From a virus (lineage: Duplodnaviria; Heunggongvirae; Uroviricota; Caudoviricetes): a DNA stretch of 15,479 nucleotides. The stretch's first letter is position 1. Every line of letters begins with the position of its first letter. Below are positions 1,198 to 11,275 of the stretch, one piece after another. The translations under genes and the position numbers were made by a program. The DNA lies in IMG/VR virus record IMGVR_UViG_2695420487_000018; one strand, given 5' to 3'. Below the pieces are notes generated by a model. That model made no database searches, was not told the origin of the DNA, and saw only the letters and a program-made list of their open reading frames with translations.

Positions 1198-2859
1198 TTA
1201 CACCCCGCTAAATTCTTCCAGTTTCTGGCGGTGGCTGTCGCTTATATCAAAAGCAAAATCCTCATGCTCTGCCTGGAATGTACCAAACGCCATCAGCGCC
1301 GCTACGCTCGGGTCTATCTTGTTCGGTGATTTTTTCTTGTTCGGCTTGATATTGGCGTTCGCGTCACTCTGCATCACGACGTTACTCATCGACCAGGACA
1401 ACACCGGATCGCCACGATGCACAATCACCCTGCGGTTAACAAAAACTTCGAACGATTTCGCCGCCGGACTGAATCTGAGGTAGGTTTGCGGGAACGGCTC
1501 CACCTCAAAACCTGCCCCCTGTAATTGCGTTCTGAGATGCGTGGCGTTCCACGTATCAAAGCCCACCAGCCTGATATTAAATTTCTCCGCGTCCTGCATG
1601 ATGTCATCTCTGATCCGGTCGTAATCAATGCAGTCGCCAGGTGTTGTGCGTATCCAGCCTGCTTTAGCCCACTGACGATAGACAGCGCGGTTTTTATTGG
1701 CGGGGTTCTGTAGCTGGAACTCCGGCAGATAATGACGGGAAACCAGCATAATGGTTTTACCTACCGGAAAGGCATAGCACACGCTGGAAATATCGCTTGT
1801 GGATGATAAATCCAGCCCCGCGTAACACTCCTGGCCGTGTAAATCTTCCTCCGTGAACGTTCCGGCACACTCAGCCCATGCGCCGTTACCCATCCACGGG
1901 GTAGTCCCCTGACACCAGATATTAAATCGCTTTGTCATCATCTCCACCCACTGCGACGGAATACCCCGCGCTTTCTGGATGGTTGAGGCCAGTTTTTCAC
2001 GATCCACGGAAACATCAATATTAGGGTTCGCCTTTATCCACATCGCCGGATCATCAACCTCGTTTTCGTCGTCCAGTTCGTAAATCAGTACAAAAATTGA
2101 ATCGTTAACCTCTTCGCCGTCCAGGATCTGGCAGCAATAATCATAGTGCTGCTTACAGGCTGAAACGACGTTGCTGCCTGATGTGGTAATGGCAAATAAC
2201 AGCCCTTCGGGACGTGCGCCCATCCCCAGCTCAAGCGCGGAATAAACGCCGTTATCGGGGTGCAAGTGGTATTCGTCCACGATGGAAAGGCTTGGGTTTG
2301 TGCCCTCGATGGTTGCCGCTTTTGCTGCCAGCGGCTTTAACAGGCTGTTGCTTTTCGGGTGTATCACCTTATGCGCCTGAATATTCACCCGCCTGCGTAA
2401 CGGTCGGGATAAAAGGCACATCTGACGCGCATCATCAAAGACGATCCGCGCCTGGTCACGGCTCACCGCTGCGGTGTAGATATCCTGCTGACCGTTCTCC
2501 ATAATCAGAAACCAGTTAGCCAGAATCGCGGCGGTCGTGGATTTCGCATTTTTGCGCGGCACTTCGATAAAGGCGCTCGTATATTTGCGCCGTCCGGTGG
2601 CCTTAACCTTAAAGCCGAGGATGCACGCAAAGGCGAACTGCTGCCACGGCTCCAGCTCAATGGGTCTGCCACGCATCGGTCCTTTTACGTGCGGGCACAC
2701 CCTGGAAAAGGCAATAAACCGCTCCACAACCTCACGATCGAACGTGTAAAGGGGGCTTTTAAGGTCCGAAAAGTACCGTTTAACAGCCTGTTTTAACCGT
2801 TTACAGGCCGGAATTTTGCCCGTTTTTACGTCTTCTGCGTACTTATTCCAGGCGGTCAA
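1198..2859 (-). CDS. terL: Terminase large subunit (HK97/Terminase_1-like)
   Basis: 553-aa ORF; N-terminal ATPase region with P-loop-like VPRKNAKST, C-terminal nuclease-like region; start overlaps the TerS 3' end by 17 nt. Confidence 0.9.
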   Translation of the reverse strand: MTAWNKYAEDVKTGKIPACKRLKQAVKRYFSDLKSPLYTFDREVVERFIAFSRVCPHVKGPMRGRPIELEPWQQFAFACILGFKVKATGRRKYTSAFIEVPRKNAKSTTAAILANWFLIMENGQQDIYTAAVSRDQARIVFDDARQMCLLSRPLRRRVNIQAHKVIHPKSNSLLKPLAAKAATIEGTNPSLSIVDEYHLHPDNGVYSALELGMGARPEGLLFAITTSGSNVVSACKQHYDYCCQILDGEEVNDSIFVLIYELDDENEVDDPAMWIKANPNIDVSVDREKLASTIQKARGIPSQWVEMMTKRFNIWCQGTTPWMGNGAWAECAGTFTEEDLHGQECYAGLDLSSTSDISSVCYAFPVGKTIMLVSRHYLPEFQLQNPANKNRAVYRQWAKAGWIRTTPGDCIDYDRIRDDIMQDAEKFNIRLVGFDTWNATHLRTQLQGAGFEVEPFPQTYLRFSPAAKSFEVFVNRRVIVHRGDPVLSWSMSNVVMQSDANANIKPNKKKSPNKIDPSVAALMAFGTFQAEHEDFAFDISDSHRQKLEEFSGV

Positions 2860-3199
2860 GCTCGTCCTCTTCTTCTGTTTCCGGTGGATTTTTACGGCGG
2901 CTTATCGGGTCAAAACCGAGCAAGGAGGCCATTTTTATCATCACTCTTTCCGCGTCGGATTTCGCGCTTAATGCGGGGTTTCTGCTCTCTCCGCCCTGAC
3001 TGTTAACAATGCTGAACCCGCGCGCCGCAAGGTCTGCGACGGCTTTCCGGTATATCGAGTAATTGACGCAATACAGTTCCAGATTACTCCAGTCGGCGGG
3101 AGTCAGGTCACCCCGTTCCGCAAGCGGCCGCGATTTTTCCCGCCACTGCTTCACGGCGATATCATCCAGGTAGGCGGGGGCTTTCGGTGGTCTTGCCAT
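2843..3199 (-). CDS. terS: Terminase small subunit (P27-family-like)
   Basis: 118-aa ORF directly upstream of and overlapping TerL; acidic C-terminal tail EEEDELDRLE; size and position typical of HK97-type TerS. Confidence 0.75.
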   Translation of the reverse strand: MARPPKAPAYLDDIAVKQWREKSRPLAERGDLTPADWSNLELYCVNYSIYRKAVADLAARGFSIVNSQGGESRNPALSAKSDAERVMIKMASLLGFDPISRRKNPPETEEEDELDRLE

Positions 3200-3322
3200 G
3201 CTTATTTTTTCGCCAGATTATTTTTCAAAAAATTCCCGTGCATAAAAATTTGAGGAGGCGTTCGGTGCCCGGCGGGGTCGGGTTTGTCCTGAAAACGCCC
3301 CCCACCCCGTCATACAGCCTCA

Positions 3323-3505
3323 TCAGCGATTGCGGAAACATTCCATAACCTCGCGGTCACGGTCGGTTAATCGCTTCGCTGTGATGCGTTCTGCGCGTCC
3401 TGACGCTTTATCTTTATGCCCTGTTTCCTGTGTCTTCCATGCGTCACGCTGCCTTATAAGTCCACGGATAAGGCGGTTTTGTTCCCGCTCATTCATCAGC
3501 GTCAT
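3323..3505 (-). CDS. Small basic hypothetical protein (about 57-60 aa) between HNH and TerS
   Basis: ATG at 3505 or 3496 lies just upstream of, and out of frame with, the HNH stop (3489-3491), suggesting coupling; translation M(TLM)NEREQNRLIRGLIRQRDAWKT... is Arg/Lys-rich. Only the 3' part of the longer 3323..3727 track ORF is used; weak SD. Confidence 0.3.
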   Translation of the reverse strand: MTLMNEREQNRLIRGLIRQRDAWKTQETGHKDKASGRAERITAKRLTDRDREVMECFRNR

Positions 3506-3929
3506 ACATCCAGTTATTGCGGTTAGCGGCCCGTTCTTCCTCTTCATGAAATCCACCTGCGGCACGCTTGCTTTTTGTTGCCGGATCAAGCCATTTCGTT
3601 TTCTGGTTATGACACGCCTGGCACAATGGTTGATGGTTCCATTCGGGCCAGAAGAGAACATCATCACCGCCATTAATCGGGATAATGTGATCCACCACCA
3701 CGGCGGGCGTATATATCCCCTTCTCAAGGCATCGCACGCATAACGGGTTTTTACTCAGATACATGGCGCGGTATTTGTCCCACTGTCTGGAGTACCCACG
3801 CGCGCGGCGGTGTCCTCGTCTGGCATCCTCTGCACGCCATGCCGCCCGCCTGTGCTCCTCACACTTGCCGGACTTCACGCGCCTGTTACAGCCTGGTTCT
3901 GTGCATCGTCTTAATGGTTGCCACGGCAT
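3489..3929 (-). CDS. HNH endonuclease (terminase-associated)
   Basis: 146-aa ORF with Cys pairs and the HNH core ...VVDHIIPINGGDD...NHQPLCQACHNQKT; start overlaps the upstream gene stop (TGATG). Confidence 0.85.
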   Translation of the reverse strand: MPWQPLRRCTEPGCNRRVKSGKCEEHRRAAWRAEDARRGHRRARGYSRQWDKYRAMYLSKNPLCVRCLEKGIYTPAVVVDHIIPINGGDDVLFWPEWNHQPLCQACHNQKTKWLDPATKSKRAAGGFHEEEERAANRNNWMYDADE

Positions 3930-4225
3930 CAGTACACCCCCACATCACGGTAAGCCGTCCAGAGCGCGCCAATCGTCATGGGTACGCGCGTTTTTGCGTT
4001 ATCCGCTACCAGCTGGCGATTCTCGTACAGGTGAGCGATAAACATCATGCAGCCAATCTTTATGGCTGGCGTGAACTCCAGCCCGTCATCAAAGCGCCTG
4101 CCTATATGTATCTGGCACGCCTCAAGCGATGCGGCAATGTATCCGCTGATTAACTGGTCTTCCTCGTCGCCATCGATGCGGCAATGGAGTTTCACTTCTT
4201 CCAGGGTGATAAGTTCTTCTGTCAT
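3929..4225 (-). CDS. Head-tail connector protein (gp6-like family)
   Basis: 98-aa ORF; N-terminal LITLEEVKLHCRIDGDEEDQLI resembles the gp6-like connector signature; ATGA overlap with the upstream gene. Confidence 0.65.
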   Translation of the reverse strand: MTEELITLEEVKLHCRIDGDEEDQLISGYIAASLEACQIHIGRRFDDGLEFTPAIKIGCMMFIAHLYENRQLVADNAKTRVPMTIGALWTAYRDVGVY

Positions 4226-4560
4226 TTTTCCGCGCCCTCACGACAAAGAATTTCAAGGCGTGTCCTGGCGGCATCCGGCAGCGGCTGCCCGATGATATTC
4301 AGTACACGCCCCGCCAGCGGCCCCGTATTGACCTTTATCCGGCTGGTGGCGTTGATGTCCTTCCTGTAGCGTATCCATATCCTTACCGTTCCAGTCGCCA
4401 GTTCTGCACCCGATGAAATGGCCTCCTTGCTGCTGATCATGTTCACGCTTGCCCAGAGTGTGTGACCGTCCACCCACGTTTCGAGTATTTCGCCGGTTAT
4501 ATCCCTGGTCTGTTTCAGGGTCTGAATCGTTACCCTGTCACGCAGTCGCCCTATGTTCAT
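4222..4560 (-). CDS. Head closure / head-tail joining protein (Phage_H_T_join-like)
   Basis: Track ORF 4222..4602; likely start is the ATG at 4560, overlapping the portal stop (ATGA). About 112 aa, MNIGRLRDRVTIQ...VRIWIRYR... resembles head-tail joining proteins. Confidence 0.6.
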   Translation of the reverse strand: MNIGRLRDRVTIQTLKQTRDITGEILETWVDGHTLWASVNMISSKEAISSGAELATGTVRIWIRYRKDINATSRIKVNTGPLAGRVLNIIGQPLPDAARTRLEILCREGAEK

Positions 4561-6381: not shown

Positions 6382-7539
6382 TTAATCGTCGTCCTGCGGC
6401 AGTTCCAGAATCTTTATAGCGTTCGAATCCACCACGCCACCGCCTAAATATTTCTGCGTGAAAATTTTGATAAAGCCCGGCTCTGTCAGGTTGTCCGGTC
6501 TGGTGCGCACGCCCGTTTCATGATCAACGATGTAATAACCGCGTTTGAAGTCACCCAGGGCGATAACGTTATCCGGCATAAATTCCAGATACTCCACCGG
6601 AAGCCCCAGCAACGTATCAGGATCACCCGCCTGTAAACGGTCGCGCCAGATGTAATCGCCGTTCGCGTTCTTCACCTTCTGAAGTTTTGCCGCCGTCGTG
6701 GAGTTAACCACCCAGACCGCGTTTTTGCGGTATTTTTTACGTAATGCAAATTTCAGGTCGATCAGCGGGTCCGCAGATGTCCACGCCAGAGATTCGGAAG
6801 GTTTAATTACCTGCAACGTACCAAAATCACGCTCTTTGTCGTTCTTCTCTGCACGGGGTACGGATAAAAAACCTTTTGCTTTTTTGTCACCGTCGCCCAC
6901 AACCAGATCGCTTTCTTCGGTTTCCGTGAAGGTGTCGCCAATCTCACCCGTCAGCCATGAAAGGATGTCCACATCGGAAAAATCCACGATTTCCTGTGTG
7001 GTGCGCGGGTACGCATAGACCGGATACAGCTTAATGCTCACCTCGTTAATCTGCGGGGTGCTGGTCTGTTCGCGTGCCTTACCCTCTTCACCGTGGTTAA
7101 CGGTCGCACCGCCAGCGGAAACAAGCTGCTTAAACTCGTTGCTGCTGATTTTCTTCACGGTACAGATGCGGCGCATGGTGGATTCATCCGCCAGCATTCG
7201 CATGATTTCGGTGTTCAGCTCGGGGATAACGGTATAACCACCATCAGCGGGAACGCCTGTACTTAATGCGCGGGTTTCACCTGTCAGGATGTAGTTGCGT
7301 AGTTCTGCGGGGTCAGTGGTCTGACTGCTTTTACCTGGCTTGCTGCGCTCTTCGTCTGCAATGGCTTCAAGGCGGGAAATGTCTTTATCGAGGGATTCAG
7401 CTTTAGCGCGTAATTCGTCAAATTTTGCGCCCTCAGCATCGTTAAGACTGCGGTTTTCTTTTTCCGCGTTCTCCAGCATGTCGCGCATCTGATTTTTAAT
7501 GGCGGTTTTCTGCTGGCGTAATTCGATTATTCTCGGCAT
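6382..7539 (-). CDS. Major capsid protein (HK97 fold) with N-terminal coiled-coil delta/scaffold domain
   Basis: 385-aa ORF; first ~100 aa are coiled-coil-like (IIELRQQKTAIKNQMRDMLENAEKENRSL...), followed by a capsid-like body. Confidence 0.85.
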   Translation of the reverse strand: MPRIIELRQQKTAIKNQMRDMLENAEKENRSLNDAEGAKFDELRAKAESLDKDISRLEAIADEERSKPGKSSQTTDPAELRNYILTGETRALSTGVPADGGYTVIPELNTEIMRMLADESTMRRICTVKKISSNEFKQLVSAGGATVNHGEEGKAREQTSTPQINEVSIKLYPVYAYPRTTQEIVDFSDVDILSWLTGEIGDTFTETEESDLVVGDGDKKAKGFLSVPRAEKNDKERDFGTLQVIKPSESLAWTSADPLIDLKFALRKKYRKNAVWVVNSTTAAKLQKVKNANGDYIWRDRLQAGDPDTLLGLPVEYLEFMPDNVIALGDFKRGYYIVDHETGVRTRPDNLTEPGFIKIFTQKYLGGGVVDSNAIKILELPQDDD

Positions 7540-8803: not shown

Positions 8804-9120
8804 GTGCGGGTTATGCGGGTTATTGGGTTATCTTAGCGTGCTAACCATTTTTTATCCTTTTATATCAGCATGTTGCAAAACGCCCTGTTTATTATTTGCT
8901 CACCACATAACCCGCAAAACGCTCAAAATAACCCGCAAACGGGGTTTTTTCTGCGGGTTACGCATGACTGTCCGGTGTTACTTCAGTTATTCGCCTGCGG
9001 GTTATAATCGTGCTTTTGCGGGTTATAAATGCCCTTTTGCGGGTTACGTGCGGGTTATTGATTTCCTTTATATTCATGCGCTTAATACACTTATACACAG
9101 GATAACCCGCATAACCCGCA
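8804..9120. repeat. Iteron-type replication origin: about 12 copies of GCGGGTTA(T/C) (8 forward, 4 reverse) plus AT-rich tracts
   Basis: Forward copies at 8806, 8815, 8953, 8997, 9018, 9039, 9050 (and degenerate 8824); reverse ATAACCCGC at 8907, 8928, 9102, 9111; AT-rich 8780-8800 and 8840-8900; directly downstream of the rep gene. Confidence 0.8.
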
Positions 9121-9142: not shown

Positions 9143-11275
9143 TTAATCTTCATCATCAGGCTGGAACATCAGCACGTAAAAAACATGCTGCTTACCCCCA
9201 ATCTTGCCCAGCGCCTTTTTTTTGTATCGGCGATCGCTTCCCTTCTCCAGCATTCCGGCAGCATCCAGGGCACGCGCAAAATGCGCCGGATTAAATCCCT
9301 TCGCTATCTCACTCTCAAACACGTGCGGGAACGTGTAATAGCGCATCTCGTCATCTTCGTTGCGAATGCTCCCTTTTCTGTATCCGGCAAGCTCTTTAAT
9401 CGGTAAATCACGCTCATCTGTATTGGGGTACGGAAGGTAGCGGCTAAACCCAAACGACGACAAAAACGCCTCAGCCTGTTCAACCATCTGTTTAAATTCC
9501 CTGTTACCTGTGCCGAACTCCTTCACCCAGGCATTAAAGTTATGCTGTATCGCGTCGCGGCATTCCTGCACGACCCAGCCAGTTACATGACCGGAAAGCA
9601 CAAGCGCGGCCTCCAGTATGGCGAAACGTTCACCCACGCGGTGGACCTGCTCGCCGTAACTCTCCGGTATCAGGTTGCGCCACCGTTCGCGGCATTCCCT
9701 TACCGTGTCCTTTGCCTCCTGCTGGTGGCCTGCCAGCCATTTAACCCACTCACGACCCGCCGCCCCGTGATTTGCTGTCCAGGCATCCTTTAACGCGTCA
9801 GCATGTTCCTTACCGTTGCTGTATTCGTGAAATTTCGTGGCTTTTTCCATCGGAACGTTAAGCAGTCGGACAAGCTGCCCCGCCTTAACTTTTATCCCCT
9901 CACTTTTGAGGAATGTCTCAACGTCCATTTCTCCGGTGCTGATTGCCACCGTTCGCCAGTGTTTGATCTCCCTGTTGCCGCCATCCTTCGCCCCCTGCAA
10001 TTTCCCTGAACCGTTAAACAGCGTATAAGCAGACGTTGACACTTCCCGCGCATTTCCGGCCTGGCCTATCTCATCCAGTGGTAAAAGCCCGTCATTATGG
10101 GCCTCGGCCTCATTGGCAATACCTAACGCCGTGCCGTACCAGGTCAGCCGCTGCGCGTCCGGCTCTCCCCATAAACTTGATGCGATGTTCTGCGTGGTGG
10201 TCTTACCTGCCGATGACTGTTCGAAAAGATGCACCCCGAAGCCGTCAGCACCCACAAGGCCAATTAAAGGCGCTGCCAGTGACGTTGCCACACCCAGTAT
10301 CATTGAGGCATTACCGCCAGCCAGCCGCGCCACGCTGTCGCGCCAGCCATCCGCCGTGCCCGCCACGGAATAACCGTTAATCGCGGCGCTTTTTCCGGTA
10401 AACAGGATCGGTTTTTCAGATTCACCAATGATCGAACCGTCCGGCATGATGTACGCGCCAAAATGCCAGCCCGTTGTTGTGCTTAACTGCCATTCCTCAT
10501 GGCTTCCGCTTAACTGCATCCAGTCCGCCAGGATTGCCCTGTATTTGCCGTTGGTTGTCACGTTCAGCCCGTGATCTTTAAGTAACCGCCAGCCGTCACG
10601 GTCGCCGATACCACCACACGGGATCGCCATTGTGATGACTTTATGGTTTGCGGTTTTTTTCCAGCGCATCACGCGGTAATGCTCTTTACCGATCGTCCCC
10701 GTTCCCAGTAGTTCAAGCGGAGAACATAACCACGTCTCAGGCCGGATAATTTCGCCTGACTGCTTATCCACTTTGGGCGTTACCCAGAAAACACCATCGG
10801 CGCGACTTTCAACGCGTGGCTTTAATTCGTCATCGCTATGGCTTCCGGTATCTTTTTTCTTTACCGGAAACTCAATAACCAGACCATCAGAAAGATTCTG
10901 CCGCTCACGGGCCAGATATTCGCGCCAGTTCTCCACCTTCTGACCGTGCATTCCTTCGGGGTAAAAATTTGCGTCCTGAATATCTGCCGCCGCCAGCTTC
11001 TGACCAATCTTTTTGGTCTCCACCAAATCCAGTTCTCCGGCCTGGTACAGCCTTACGCGTTTTTTTCCATCCGGAACAATTTTCAGCGCATCAAGTTCGG
11101 CAAGCTGATTTGGCCCAAGCCACACAGGCGGAACATTATCGCCGGATGCGGGGCCATCCTGCTCCTGCCATTGTTTCGCGTGCGACCAGGCATCACTACC
11201 CGCGAAAATAATTACCTCTGTGTCTTTGTGTTTTATTCCGCGTGGCTGTTTTTTTACGTTCGGTGCCAGTTTCAT
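9143..11275 (-). CDS. Replication initiator, primase/helicase-type (P-loop NTPase; DUF927/D5-like family suspected)
   Basis: 710-aa ORF; Walker A-like FEQSSAGKTT; position immediately upstream of the iterons matches pri-rep genes of satellites. Confidence 0.8.
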   Translation of the reverse strand: MKLAPNVKKQPRGIKHKDTEVIIFAGSDAWSHAKQWQEQDGPASGDNVPPVWLGPNQLAELDALKIVPDGKKRVRLYQAGELDLVETKKIGQKLAAADIQDANFYPEGMHGQKVENWREYLARERQNLSDGLVIEFPVKKKDTGSHSDDELKPRVESRADGVFWVTPKVDKQSGEIIRPETWLCSPLELLGTGTIGKEHYRVMRWKKTANHKVITMAIPCGGIGDRDGWRLLKDHGLNVTTNGKYRAILADWMQLSGSHEEWQLSTTTGWHFGAYIMPDGSIIGESEKPILFTGKSAAINGYSVAGTADGWRDSVARLAGGNASMILGVATSLAAPLIGLVGADGFGVHLFEQSSAGKTTTQNIASSLWGEPDAQRLTWYGTALGIANEAEAHNDGLLPLDEIGQAGNAREVSTSAYTLFNGSGKLQGAKDGGNREIKHWRTVAISTGEMDVETFLKSEGIKVKAGQLVRLLNVPMEKATKFHEYSNGKEHADALKDAWTANHGAAGREWVKWLAGHQQEAKDTVRECRERWRNLIPESYGEQVHRVGERFAILEAALVLSGHVTGWVVQECRDAIQHNFNAWVKEFGTGNREFKQMVEQAEAFLSSFGFSRYLPYPNTDERDLPIKELAGYRKGSIRNEDDEMRYYTFPHVFESEIAKGFNPAHFARALDAAGMLEKGSDRRYKKKALGKIGGKQHVFYVLMFQPDDED

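Follow-up and report, generated by a model that had tools for sequence, protein, structure and literature searches.

A probable cos site and a small, probably linked packaging gene in a capsid-forming phage satellite of Escherichia coli

A satellite with its own packaging genes

The DNA considered here, the whole of which is called the window, is a stretch of viral sequence 15,479 nucleotides (15.5 kb) in length. At positions 3200-3505, a small open reading frame and a noncoding spacer separate the gene encoding an HNH endonuclease from the gene encoding TerS. The packaging genes lie on the minus strand in the order capsid, prohead protease, portal, head closure, connector, HNH, small ORF, TerS, and TerL. 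Every named packaging gene has a match in Pfam, and the order is that of capsid-forming PICIs (cf-PICIs). The features at this end of the window, with the capsid gene for reference, are as follows.

6382-7539, minus strand: capsid gene (Pfam match)
3489-3929, minus strand: HNH endonuclease, third component of terminases of the HK97 type (PF01844, E = 1.7e-8; phrog_144, E = 1e-44; RefSeq WP_001145905.1)
3323-3505, minus strand: small basic gene (phrog_3173, E = 7e-37; RefSeq WP_000174068.1)
3200-3322: spacer of 123 nt between the small ORF and TerS
2843-3199, minus strand: TerS of the P27 family, 118 aa (PF05119, E = 6.5e-23; phrog_83)
1198-2859, minus strand: TerL, with ATPase and nuclease domains (PF03354 and PF20441)

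The HNH gene, which ends in a TGA codon at 3491-3489, adjoins terS-terL, with PF01844, PF05119, and PF03354 plus PF20441 found in consecutive genes, and the combination of HNH with a P27-family TerS is typical of cos phages. The TerS of the island aligns only with positions 80-196 of the 246-position phrog_83 profile and may for that reason be regarded as a short version of the family. The idea that the small ORF is the split-off N-terminal domain of this TerS was considered and rejected, as the ORF has no match to phrog_83.

Judged by its genes, the window as a whole is a cf-PICI, a phage satellite of E. coli, of the type represented by EcCIEDL933. The cf-PICIs are recognized by an integrase and a replication module, by their own genes for capsid, protease, portal, head closure, and connector, followed by hnh-terS-terL, and by a size of 10-18 kb. 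EcCIEDL933, the prototype, is 15.4 kb long (Alqurainy et al., bioRxiv 10.1101/2022.09.08.507074; He et al., bioRxiv 10.1101/2025.02.11.637232), and the window, which is almost identical to it, agrees with it in gene content, gene order, size, and, through relatives in O157:H7, insertion site. The 500 bp around the region of interest are matched in 489 of 5,426 complete E. coli genomes, the closest of them O157:H7 strains at 99.6% identity (2 of 501 bases differ). In the O157:H7 copies, the element is inserted in tqsA and has an integrase and a primase, and RefSeq annotates no tail or lysis gene within it. Induction by a helper phage and the use of the satellite's own small capsids with tails of the helper have been shown experimentally for EcCIEDL933. 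Cohesive ends have been reported for cf-PICI DNA, and concatemers form through them. Taking all the evidence together, we consider it likely that the window is a cf-PICI of the EcCIEDL933 type and that positions 3200-3505 hold its cos site along with a small packaging gene functionally linked to that site.

A previous, sequence-only reading of this DNA had described a gap of about 290 bp, with G/C-rich tracts, between HNH and TerS. The genes and the tracts lie where that reading placed them, but the gap is not all noncoding, as it consists of a 183-nt ORF and the 123-nt spacer. The ORF encodes 60 aa if translation begins with the ATG at 3505 and 57 aa if it begins with the ATG at 3496. Its product, with 12 Arg, 4 Lys, and a pI of 10.7, agrees well with the Arg/Lys-rich protein of about 57 aa that had been proposed. 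The suggestion that its translation might be coupled to that of HNH also gains support: the ATG at 3496 overlaps the HNH stop codon as ATGAATGA, and the identical overlap is found in relatives from Klebsiella. The other E. coli clade has ATGACTGA at this overlap. The ORF is not, however, unannotated, as had been supposed. It appears as hypothetical protein WP_000174068.1 in the E. coli RefSeq records inspected, and it belongs to phrog_3173, matching that profile from position 1 to 57 of 57 (E = 7.1e-37; E = 2e-27 for the Klebsiella orthologue).

The spacer upstream of terS as a probable cos site

Two considerations support the view that the 123-nt spacer is the cos site: it is part of a module conserved across genera, and assemblies of the packaged form of related elements break within the same interval. 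Read toward terS, the spacer contains a G-run, an imperfect dyad, a C-rich segment of 10 nt, and an A/T-rich block. Positions relative to the predicted left end are given with a sign.

3298-3308, minus strand: G-run GGGGTGGGGGG, at -54 to -44, beginning 16 nt (in some variants 13 nt) past the stop codon of the small ORF; candidate termination-side (cosQ-like) element
3279-3295, minus strand: TTTTCAGGACAAACCCG, left arm of the imperfect inverted repeat I1 that flanks the predicted cut
3255-3264: putative 10-nt cohesive end, CGAACGCCTC on the minus strand and GAGGCGTTCG on the plus strand, placed by homology to contig IMGVR_UViG_3300022664_000095
3217-3254, minus strand: CTCAAATTTTTATGCACGGGAATTTTTTGAAAAATAAT, A/T-rich, the most conserved noncoding block, at +1 to +38 and adjoining TerS; candidate TerS-binding (cosB-like) site, by analogy

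The module, about 100 nt long, lies upstream of TerS in elements of E. coli, Klebsiella, Xenorhabdus, and Pasteurellaceae, and the two E. coli clades differ little in the spacer. Its A/T-rich block, which ends some 20 nt before the TerS start codon and contains GGG and a T-tract at +18 to +28, is approximately 90% identical between E. coli and Pasteurella Pmp8, even though the TerS proteins of the two are only 65% identical. Pmp8, a cf-PICI that carries the name of a Pasteurella 'phage', was found by way of its TerS protein rather than by a DNA motif. The spacer between its HNH and TerS genes has no small ORF but shows the same layout: GGTGGGGGGG, about 45 nt, ACCGCCCCCCC..TC, AAATTTTTACGCAAGGCAATTTTTTAGAAAATAAGG, and then the start of TerS. 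A degenerate pattern made from the A/T-rich block gave 12 genome matches in other genera, 10 of which adjoin a P27-family TerS; apart from one chance match, the genera were Avibacterium, Pasteurella, Lonepinella, Haemophilus, Necropsobacter, Bisgaard taxon 46, and Xenorhabdus. Three Pasteurellaceae loci at first appeared to have the module without TerS, but in the one that was checked, TerS is present some 100 nt beyond, on the far side of an inserted hairpin.

In the larger sets, the conservation from +4 to +27 is in part a matter of construction, since the loci were fetched with that pattern. Outside the search pattern, conservation among 189 unique modules is 0.9-1.0 at the G-run, at GTTTT, at ACC (-12 to -10), at CCGCC (-7 to -3), and at C/CTC (-1 to +3). 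A match to the G-run turned up in 49 of 200 shuffles of the window, so its presence is not improbable by itself; what lends it significance is its conservation, 0.89-1.0 at each position within the same 189 modules, and it is found in Pasteurellaceae and Xenorhabdus as well. The inverted repeat I1 is 17 nt long and 71% complementary, with arms at 3222-3238 and 3279-3295 and a center 1 nt from the middle of the predicted overhang. Over the 189 modules, the symmetry of the outer arms peaks 1-1.5 nt from the center of the overhang (by a test devised after I1 had been seen), while a test for two-fold symmetry over the whole range did not single out the center of the predicted cut.

Other functions for the spacer were also considered. 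A search for promoters and terminators within it gave nothing above the expectation from shuffled sequences. An RNA element was rejected (no match in Rfam, fold z-score of -1.8), as was a G/C-rich inverted repeat, I2, viewed as an RNA element, which is missing in the other E. coli clade.

Three assemblies of relatives, none of them the element in the window itself, break between hnh and terS. The first, LR881103 ('vB_KppS-Ant'), came from an induced lysate. It is a cf-PICI of 16.5 kb that starts 22 nt before TerS and ends just past GTTTTCAGGAC, and compared with integrated copies whose flanks are identical, it is 68 nt short. In the second, PQ569648, the cf-PICI part runs from codon 1 of TerS to the last codons of the small ORF. 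The third, IMGVR_UViG_3300022664_000095, is a metagenomic contig of 15,518 nt representing a cf-PICI of the Klebsiella type. All the genes of an island are present on the same strand, running from TerS, TerL, int, primase, and capsid through to HNH and the small ORF, and are hence permuted with respect to the integrated form. The contig starts with CTCAAATTTTTACGC (first letters CTCAAATTTTT) and ends with GCAAGGCAC (...GGCAC). In every one of the 20 integrated relatives with sequence across the site, ...GGCAC is followed by 10 nt (e.g., CACCCGCCCC) and then by CTCAAATTTTT, and it is exactly those 10 nt that are absent from the contig, a single one from a metagenomic library of unspecified method. 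A loss of just this kind is what the end repair of 10-nt 3' overhangs would give. By alignment, the matching 10-mer in the window is found at 3264-3255 on the minus strand, and the nicks would then fall between 3265 and 3264 and between 3255 and 3254, leaving a 3' overhang. One of the three records deserves a separate remark: PQ569648.1 ('Klebsiella phage P12620-1') is 106.5 kb long, and only its last 16 kb or so is the cf-PICI, joined to unrelated sequence at codon 1 of TerS, so that it looks like a chimeric assembly.

The predicted anatomy can be laid beside that of HK97, whose cos has a 10-nt 3' overhang. The TerS of HK97 binds at +15 to +29 (CTAACCCGATTTTTT), and the corresponding positions in the window, +15 to +29 (CACGGGAATTTTTTG), show the same combination of a GC triplet and a T-tract. 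HK97 also has a run of nine G's at about -51 to -43, as against -54 to -44 in the window. The proteins that would make the contacts are different, however. HK97 TerS (gp1) belongs to phrog_5601 and has no Pfam match, the TerS of the island belongs to the P27 family and phrog_83, and BLASTP finds no similarity between them, so that the homology of TerS which would mark packaging as HK97-type is lacking in the island. Since the two sequences are unrelated, the analogy to cosB is one of layout only and is not evidence of shared contacts between TerS and DNA. By this analogy, the system would work like that of HK97 (gp74 as HNH, gp1 as TerS, gp2 as TerL), with a P27-family TerS in the place of gp1.

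Perhaps cos is in the spacer but the nicks, or the overhang, differ from those predicted, the 10-nt gap being an artefact of assembly or of the library. The gap is seen in one contig (one metagenome scan and two viral scans brought up no further contigs ending at cos, of the E. coli type or any other), the library chemistry of sample 3300022664 is unspecified, and the 68 nt missing from LR881103 show that losses at the ends of assemblies vary. On the other hand, the gap equals the HK97 overhang in length, amounts to exactly 10 nt in comparison with each of the 20 integrated relatives, lies within 1.5 nt of the center of the outer dyad arms, and puts the G-run and the GC-plus-T-tract at distances like those in HK97. 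An artefact seems unlikely, though the nick positions, resting as they do on one contig, could be off by a few bases.

That a cos region should lie between HNH and TerS had been proposed by the sequence-only reading, and it is borne out by the breaks in the packaged forms of relatives, by the conserved module, and by the HK97-like layout. The proposal went astray in one respect, placing the site at the G/C tracts of 3265-3310. Those tracts (on the plus strand, GGTGCCCGGCGGGGTCGGG at 3265-3283 and GCCCCCCACCCCG at 3297-3309) are on the side that would be packaged last, and the predicted cohesive end, 3255-3264, is just outside them. The same reading had allowed that the ends might instead be in the array of hairpins at 463-609, but initiation there, or headful packaging, is hardly credible in spite of the several palindromes in the array: the breaks in the three independent assemblies of packaged forms fall between the small ORF and TerS and not at the equivalent of the array, cf-PICI DNA forms concatemers through cohesive ends, and an HNH with a P27-family TerS is the architecture of cos phages.

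The small gene beside the probable cos site

An AlphaFold2 model of the small protein (pLDDT 77) has a long helix at residues 5-33, a disordered linker at 34-46, and a short, conserved helix at 47-57. A Pfam search of the protein found no family at E <= 0.01, and Foldseek found no match to the model in the PDB. Within a phage database of 50,697 records, the protein has three matches, all of them derived from cf-PICIs, and a profile search of 1.8 billion representative proteins gave 10 matches, all of the same family. By these searches, the gene is confined to cf-PICIs and has no counterpart among true phages. Its reading frame is unbroken in 185 of 211 unique enterobacterial modules, and the distance from its stop codon to the G-run is 16 nt, or 13 nt in some variants. 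The cf-PICIs of Pasteurellaceae and some variants of the Klebsiella type lack the gene, while those of Pasteurellaceae keep the cos-terS arrangement.

Natural variants that have lost the gene take three forms. Several contigs of the E. coli type share a premature stop before the C-terminal helix (L345, L376, L400), some islands of the Klebsiella type have a deletion that leaves about 12 codons (L126, L175, L212), and there is one frameshift (L327).

The gene very probably has a phenotype already. The capsid protein of EcCIEDL933 is the product of gene 1786 (He et al., bioRxiv 10.1101/2025.02.11.637232). If one counts from there, the protease is 1787, the portal 1788, head closure 1789, the connector 1790, HNH 1791, and the small ORF 1792. 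By this counting of genes, rather than by a table of locus tags (neither a literature search nor look-ups of protein clusters yielded an EDL933 locus tag for the ORF), the small ORF is very likely the 'hypothetical gene 1792' of EcCIEDL933. Every gene of the packaging module has been mutated, 'hypothetical gene 1792' among them, and in the 1792 mutant, transfer of EcCIEDL933 was severely reduced, replication was unaffected, and complementation restored the titres (Alqurainy et al., bioRxiv 10.1101/2022.09.08.507074). The EcCIEDL933 papers give no mechanism for the gene, so that, if the identification is right, there is a phenotype in want of one.

Most likely, the small gene encodes a satellite-specific accessory of the terminase reaction at cos, and the reduced transfer of the 1792 mutant fits a packaging accessory. 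An essential subunit the protein is not, since its loss reduces transfer without abolishing it and since the Pasteurellaceae elements and some of the Klebsiella type do without the gene. One may picture its action as follows. In concatemers, TerS would bind the A/T-rich block beside its own gene, and TerL together with HNH would make staggered nicks some 15-25 nt upstream, leaving a 10-nt 3' overhang at about 3255-3264, to judge from the packaged-form contig of a relative and from HK97. Packaging would then proceed from terS through int, the replication genes, and the capsid genes to hnh, the small gene, and the G-run. If packaging runs in this direction, from terS to HNH, then the capsid takes up the small gene and the G-run last. 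The basic helix-linker-helix protein, presumably made in coupling with the translation of HNH, may stimulate or position cleavage by HNH and TerL, or it may aid termination at the adjacent G-run side; in either case it would improve the terminase reaction while being dispensable for it.

A more specific version, which we put forward tentatively and regard as rather less likely than not to be correct as stated, is that the phrog_3173 protein is a new kind of terminase accessory, found only in satellites, that binds the last-packaged side of cos, at the G-run, and either licenses cleavage by HNH and TerL or causes the terminase of the island to discriminate between its own cos and that of the helper. 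If true, this would help to explain why packaging by cf-PICI and packaging by helper are mutually exclusive.

Alternatively, the small protein might be a regulator, for example of terS-terL expression or of the island's late transcription. In favor of this are its small size and basic character; its C-terminal LTDRDREVMECF, which on a reading of the sequence by eye bears a loose resemblance to the opening helix of LuxR or sigma region-4 motifs; the lack of an obvious Shine-Dalgarno sequence for TerS of the E. coli type; and the phenotype of reduced transfer, with which lower expression of terminase would also be consistent. Nevertheless, a regulatory role seems improbable. Neither Pfam (E <= 0.01) nor a Foldseek search of the PDB with the AlphaFold2 fold places the protein among the helix-turn-helix proteins, of the LuxR or sigma region-4 kind or any other, and the model consists of two helices joined by a disordered linker. 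The constant distance of 13-16 nt from the gene to the G-run and the coupling to HNH also tell against it, as does the lack of the gene in Pasteurellaceae cf-PICIs that have the same cos-terS arrangement.

Whichever role the protein has, the small ORF is a genuine gene and evolves under purifying selection. Over 74 distinct copies of the segment from HNH to TerS, pN/pS is 0.38 in the annotated frame, while the two alternative frames give 0.80 and 1.84 (HNH and TerS in the same copies give 0.17 and 0.13). Thirteen variants, down to 75% identity, have indels only in frame, and the C-terminus, TAKRLTDRDREVMECFRNR, is invariant. The codons of the N-terminal helix in the two E. coli clades (CGC CTT ATC ... 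CTT and AGG CTG ATA ... CTG) differ only synonymously. The Klebsiella orthologue keeps ERDRE..ECFRNR by way of synonymous changes (CGC/CGG, TGT/TGC, AAT/AAC), and distant orthologues retain RDRE..EC(F/M)RNR. The sequence-only reading had left room for a spurious frame and had suggested conservation across homologs as the check; the frame is indeed kept, and the selection data and the in-frame indels go against its being spurious.

One could still suppose that the conservation belongs to elements of cos at the level of DNA, perhaps a cosQ-like site, that happen to lie inside an untranslated frame. The ORF adjoins cos, some copies have premature stops or deletions, and in the last 21 codons of the E. 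coli-type copies pS is 0.075, as against 0.2-0.3 elsewhere, a figure that by itself could suggest constraint on the DNA. Such an account would have to accommodate, however, a pN/pS ratio that is low in one frame, indels in multiples of three, and synonymous differences between E. coli and Klebsiella within the conserved C-terminal motif itself. It would also have to explain the retention of cos in Pasteurellaceae elements that have no small-ORF sequence and, if the numbering holds, the complementation of the 1792 mutant. It is very improbable.

Relation to other packaging systems

In bacteriophage lambda, cos is tripartite (cosQ-cosN-cosB), and its use is aided by the accessory factors IHF and gpFI. 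Its overhang is 12 nt long and 5', HNH is missing, and TerS is of another family. Lambda and the island would nevertheless share the tripartite plan, with an element on the termination side, a site where the nicks are made, and, toward the terminase genes, a part bound by TerS, and in both, accessory proteins that are not essential would raise efficiency. A homologue of the small protein was sought in lambda and not found, and HK97 likewise has no phrog_3173 gene. HK97 does have an ORF of 83 aa, not annotated, that overlaps the end of its HNH gene and so has a relative placement like that of the small ORF (39346-39597 of NC_002167; 647-898 of our locus L010); it has no Pfam match and no resemblance to phrog_3173.

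A different comparison is offered by Rpp, a protein of classical PICIs of Gram-negative bacteria that is reported to bind the TerS of the helper phage (Fillol-Salom et al. 2019, PMC6739421). It is the helper's TerS that Rpp targets because the classical PICIs have no terminase of their own. Rpp and the small protein are alike in being small and encoded by satellites, and Rpp acts on the specificity of packaging at cos sites, but the cf-PICI island, in contrast to PICIs of the Rpp type, encodes its own TerS, TerL, and HNH.

The element and the logic of its packaging were already known; what is new is the cos anatomy proposed here for cf-PICIs and, if the 1792 numbering holds, the recognition of gene 1792 as a member of a satellite-only family set directly against the last-packaged end. 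Neither the position nor the sequence of a cf-PICI cos was found in the literature searched, the EcCIEDL933 papers cited above included. The picture of HK97-type packaging is unchanged, and for the most part detail is added to a known system. Still, cf-PICIs move from one species to another by way of capsids of their own into which they package themselves, and the cos site would be the minimal element required in cis to mobilize DNA with their machinery. The proposed signature, a 10-nt end (3255-3264 in the window) with the 38-nt block by terS and the G-run, may serve as a simple way to find cf-PICIs, and the location of cos would explain where assemblies derived from virions break. Of all the genes in the packaging module, the small gene alone has yet to be given a role, and its confinement to satellites makes it a defined target for studying how satellite packaging is separated from that of the helper.

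A few other features of these islands may be noted. In LR881103.1, a cf-PICI of Klebsiella, a gene of 765 aa directly after terL (positions 2036-4333) is annotated as 'tail length tape measure protein', an odd label given that the class is defined by the absence of tail genes; it may be a misnamed accessory or defence gene. In the window, the place downstream of terL (903-1184) is occupied by a conserved gene of 93 aa, phrog_1561, to which no function has been assigned, and a contig of the Klebsiella type has in the same place an ORF that resembles it weakly (39% identity over 56 aa). Downstream of the 93-aa gene comes the run of short palindromes, perfect or nearly so, at 463-609, GATACCCCAAATTTGGGTATC, GACCCAAAATCTGGGT, CTACCCAAACTACGGGTAG, and GTTGCAGATCTGCAAC. 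Hairpins of the CCCAAATTTGGG type, similar to these palindromes, adjoin the cos module in cf-PICIs of Pasteurellaceae (L094, L096, L099). Finally, directly downstream of the primase gene (9143-11275, minus strand), at 8805-9120, there are iteron-like repeats, TGCGGGTTATAAACGCCCTTT in 2.4 copies, TGCGGGTTA in 3 copies, and an inverted ATAACCCGC, which presumably constitute the replication origin of the island.
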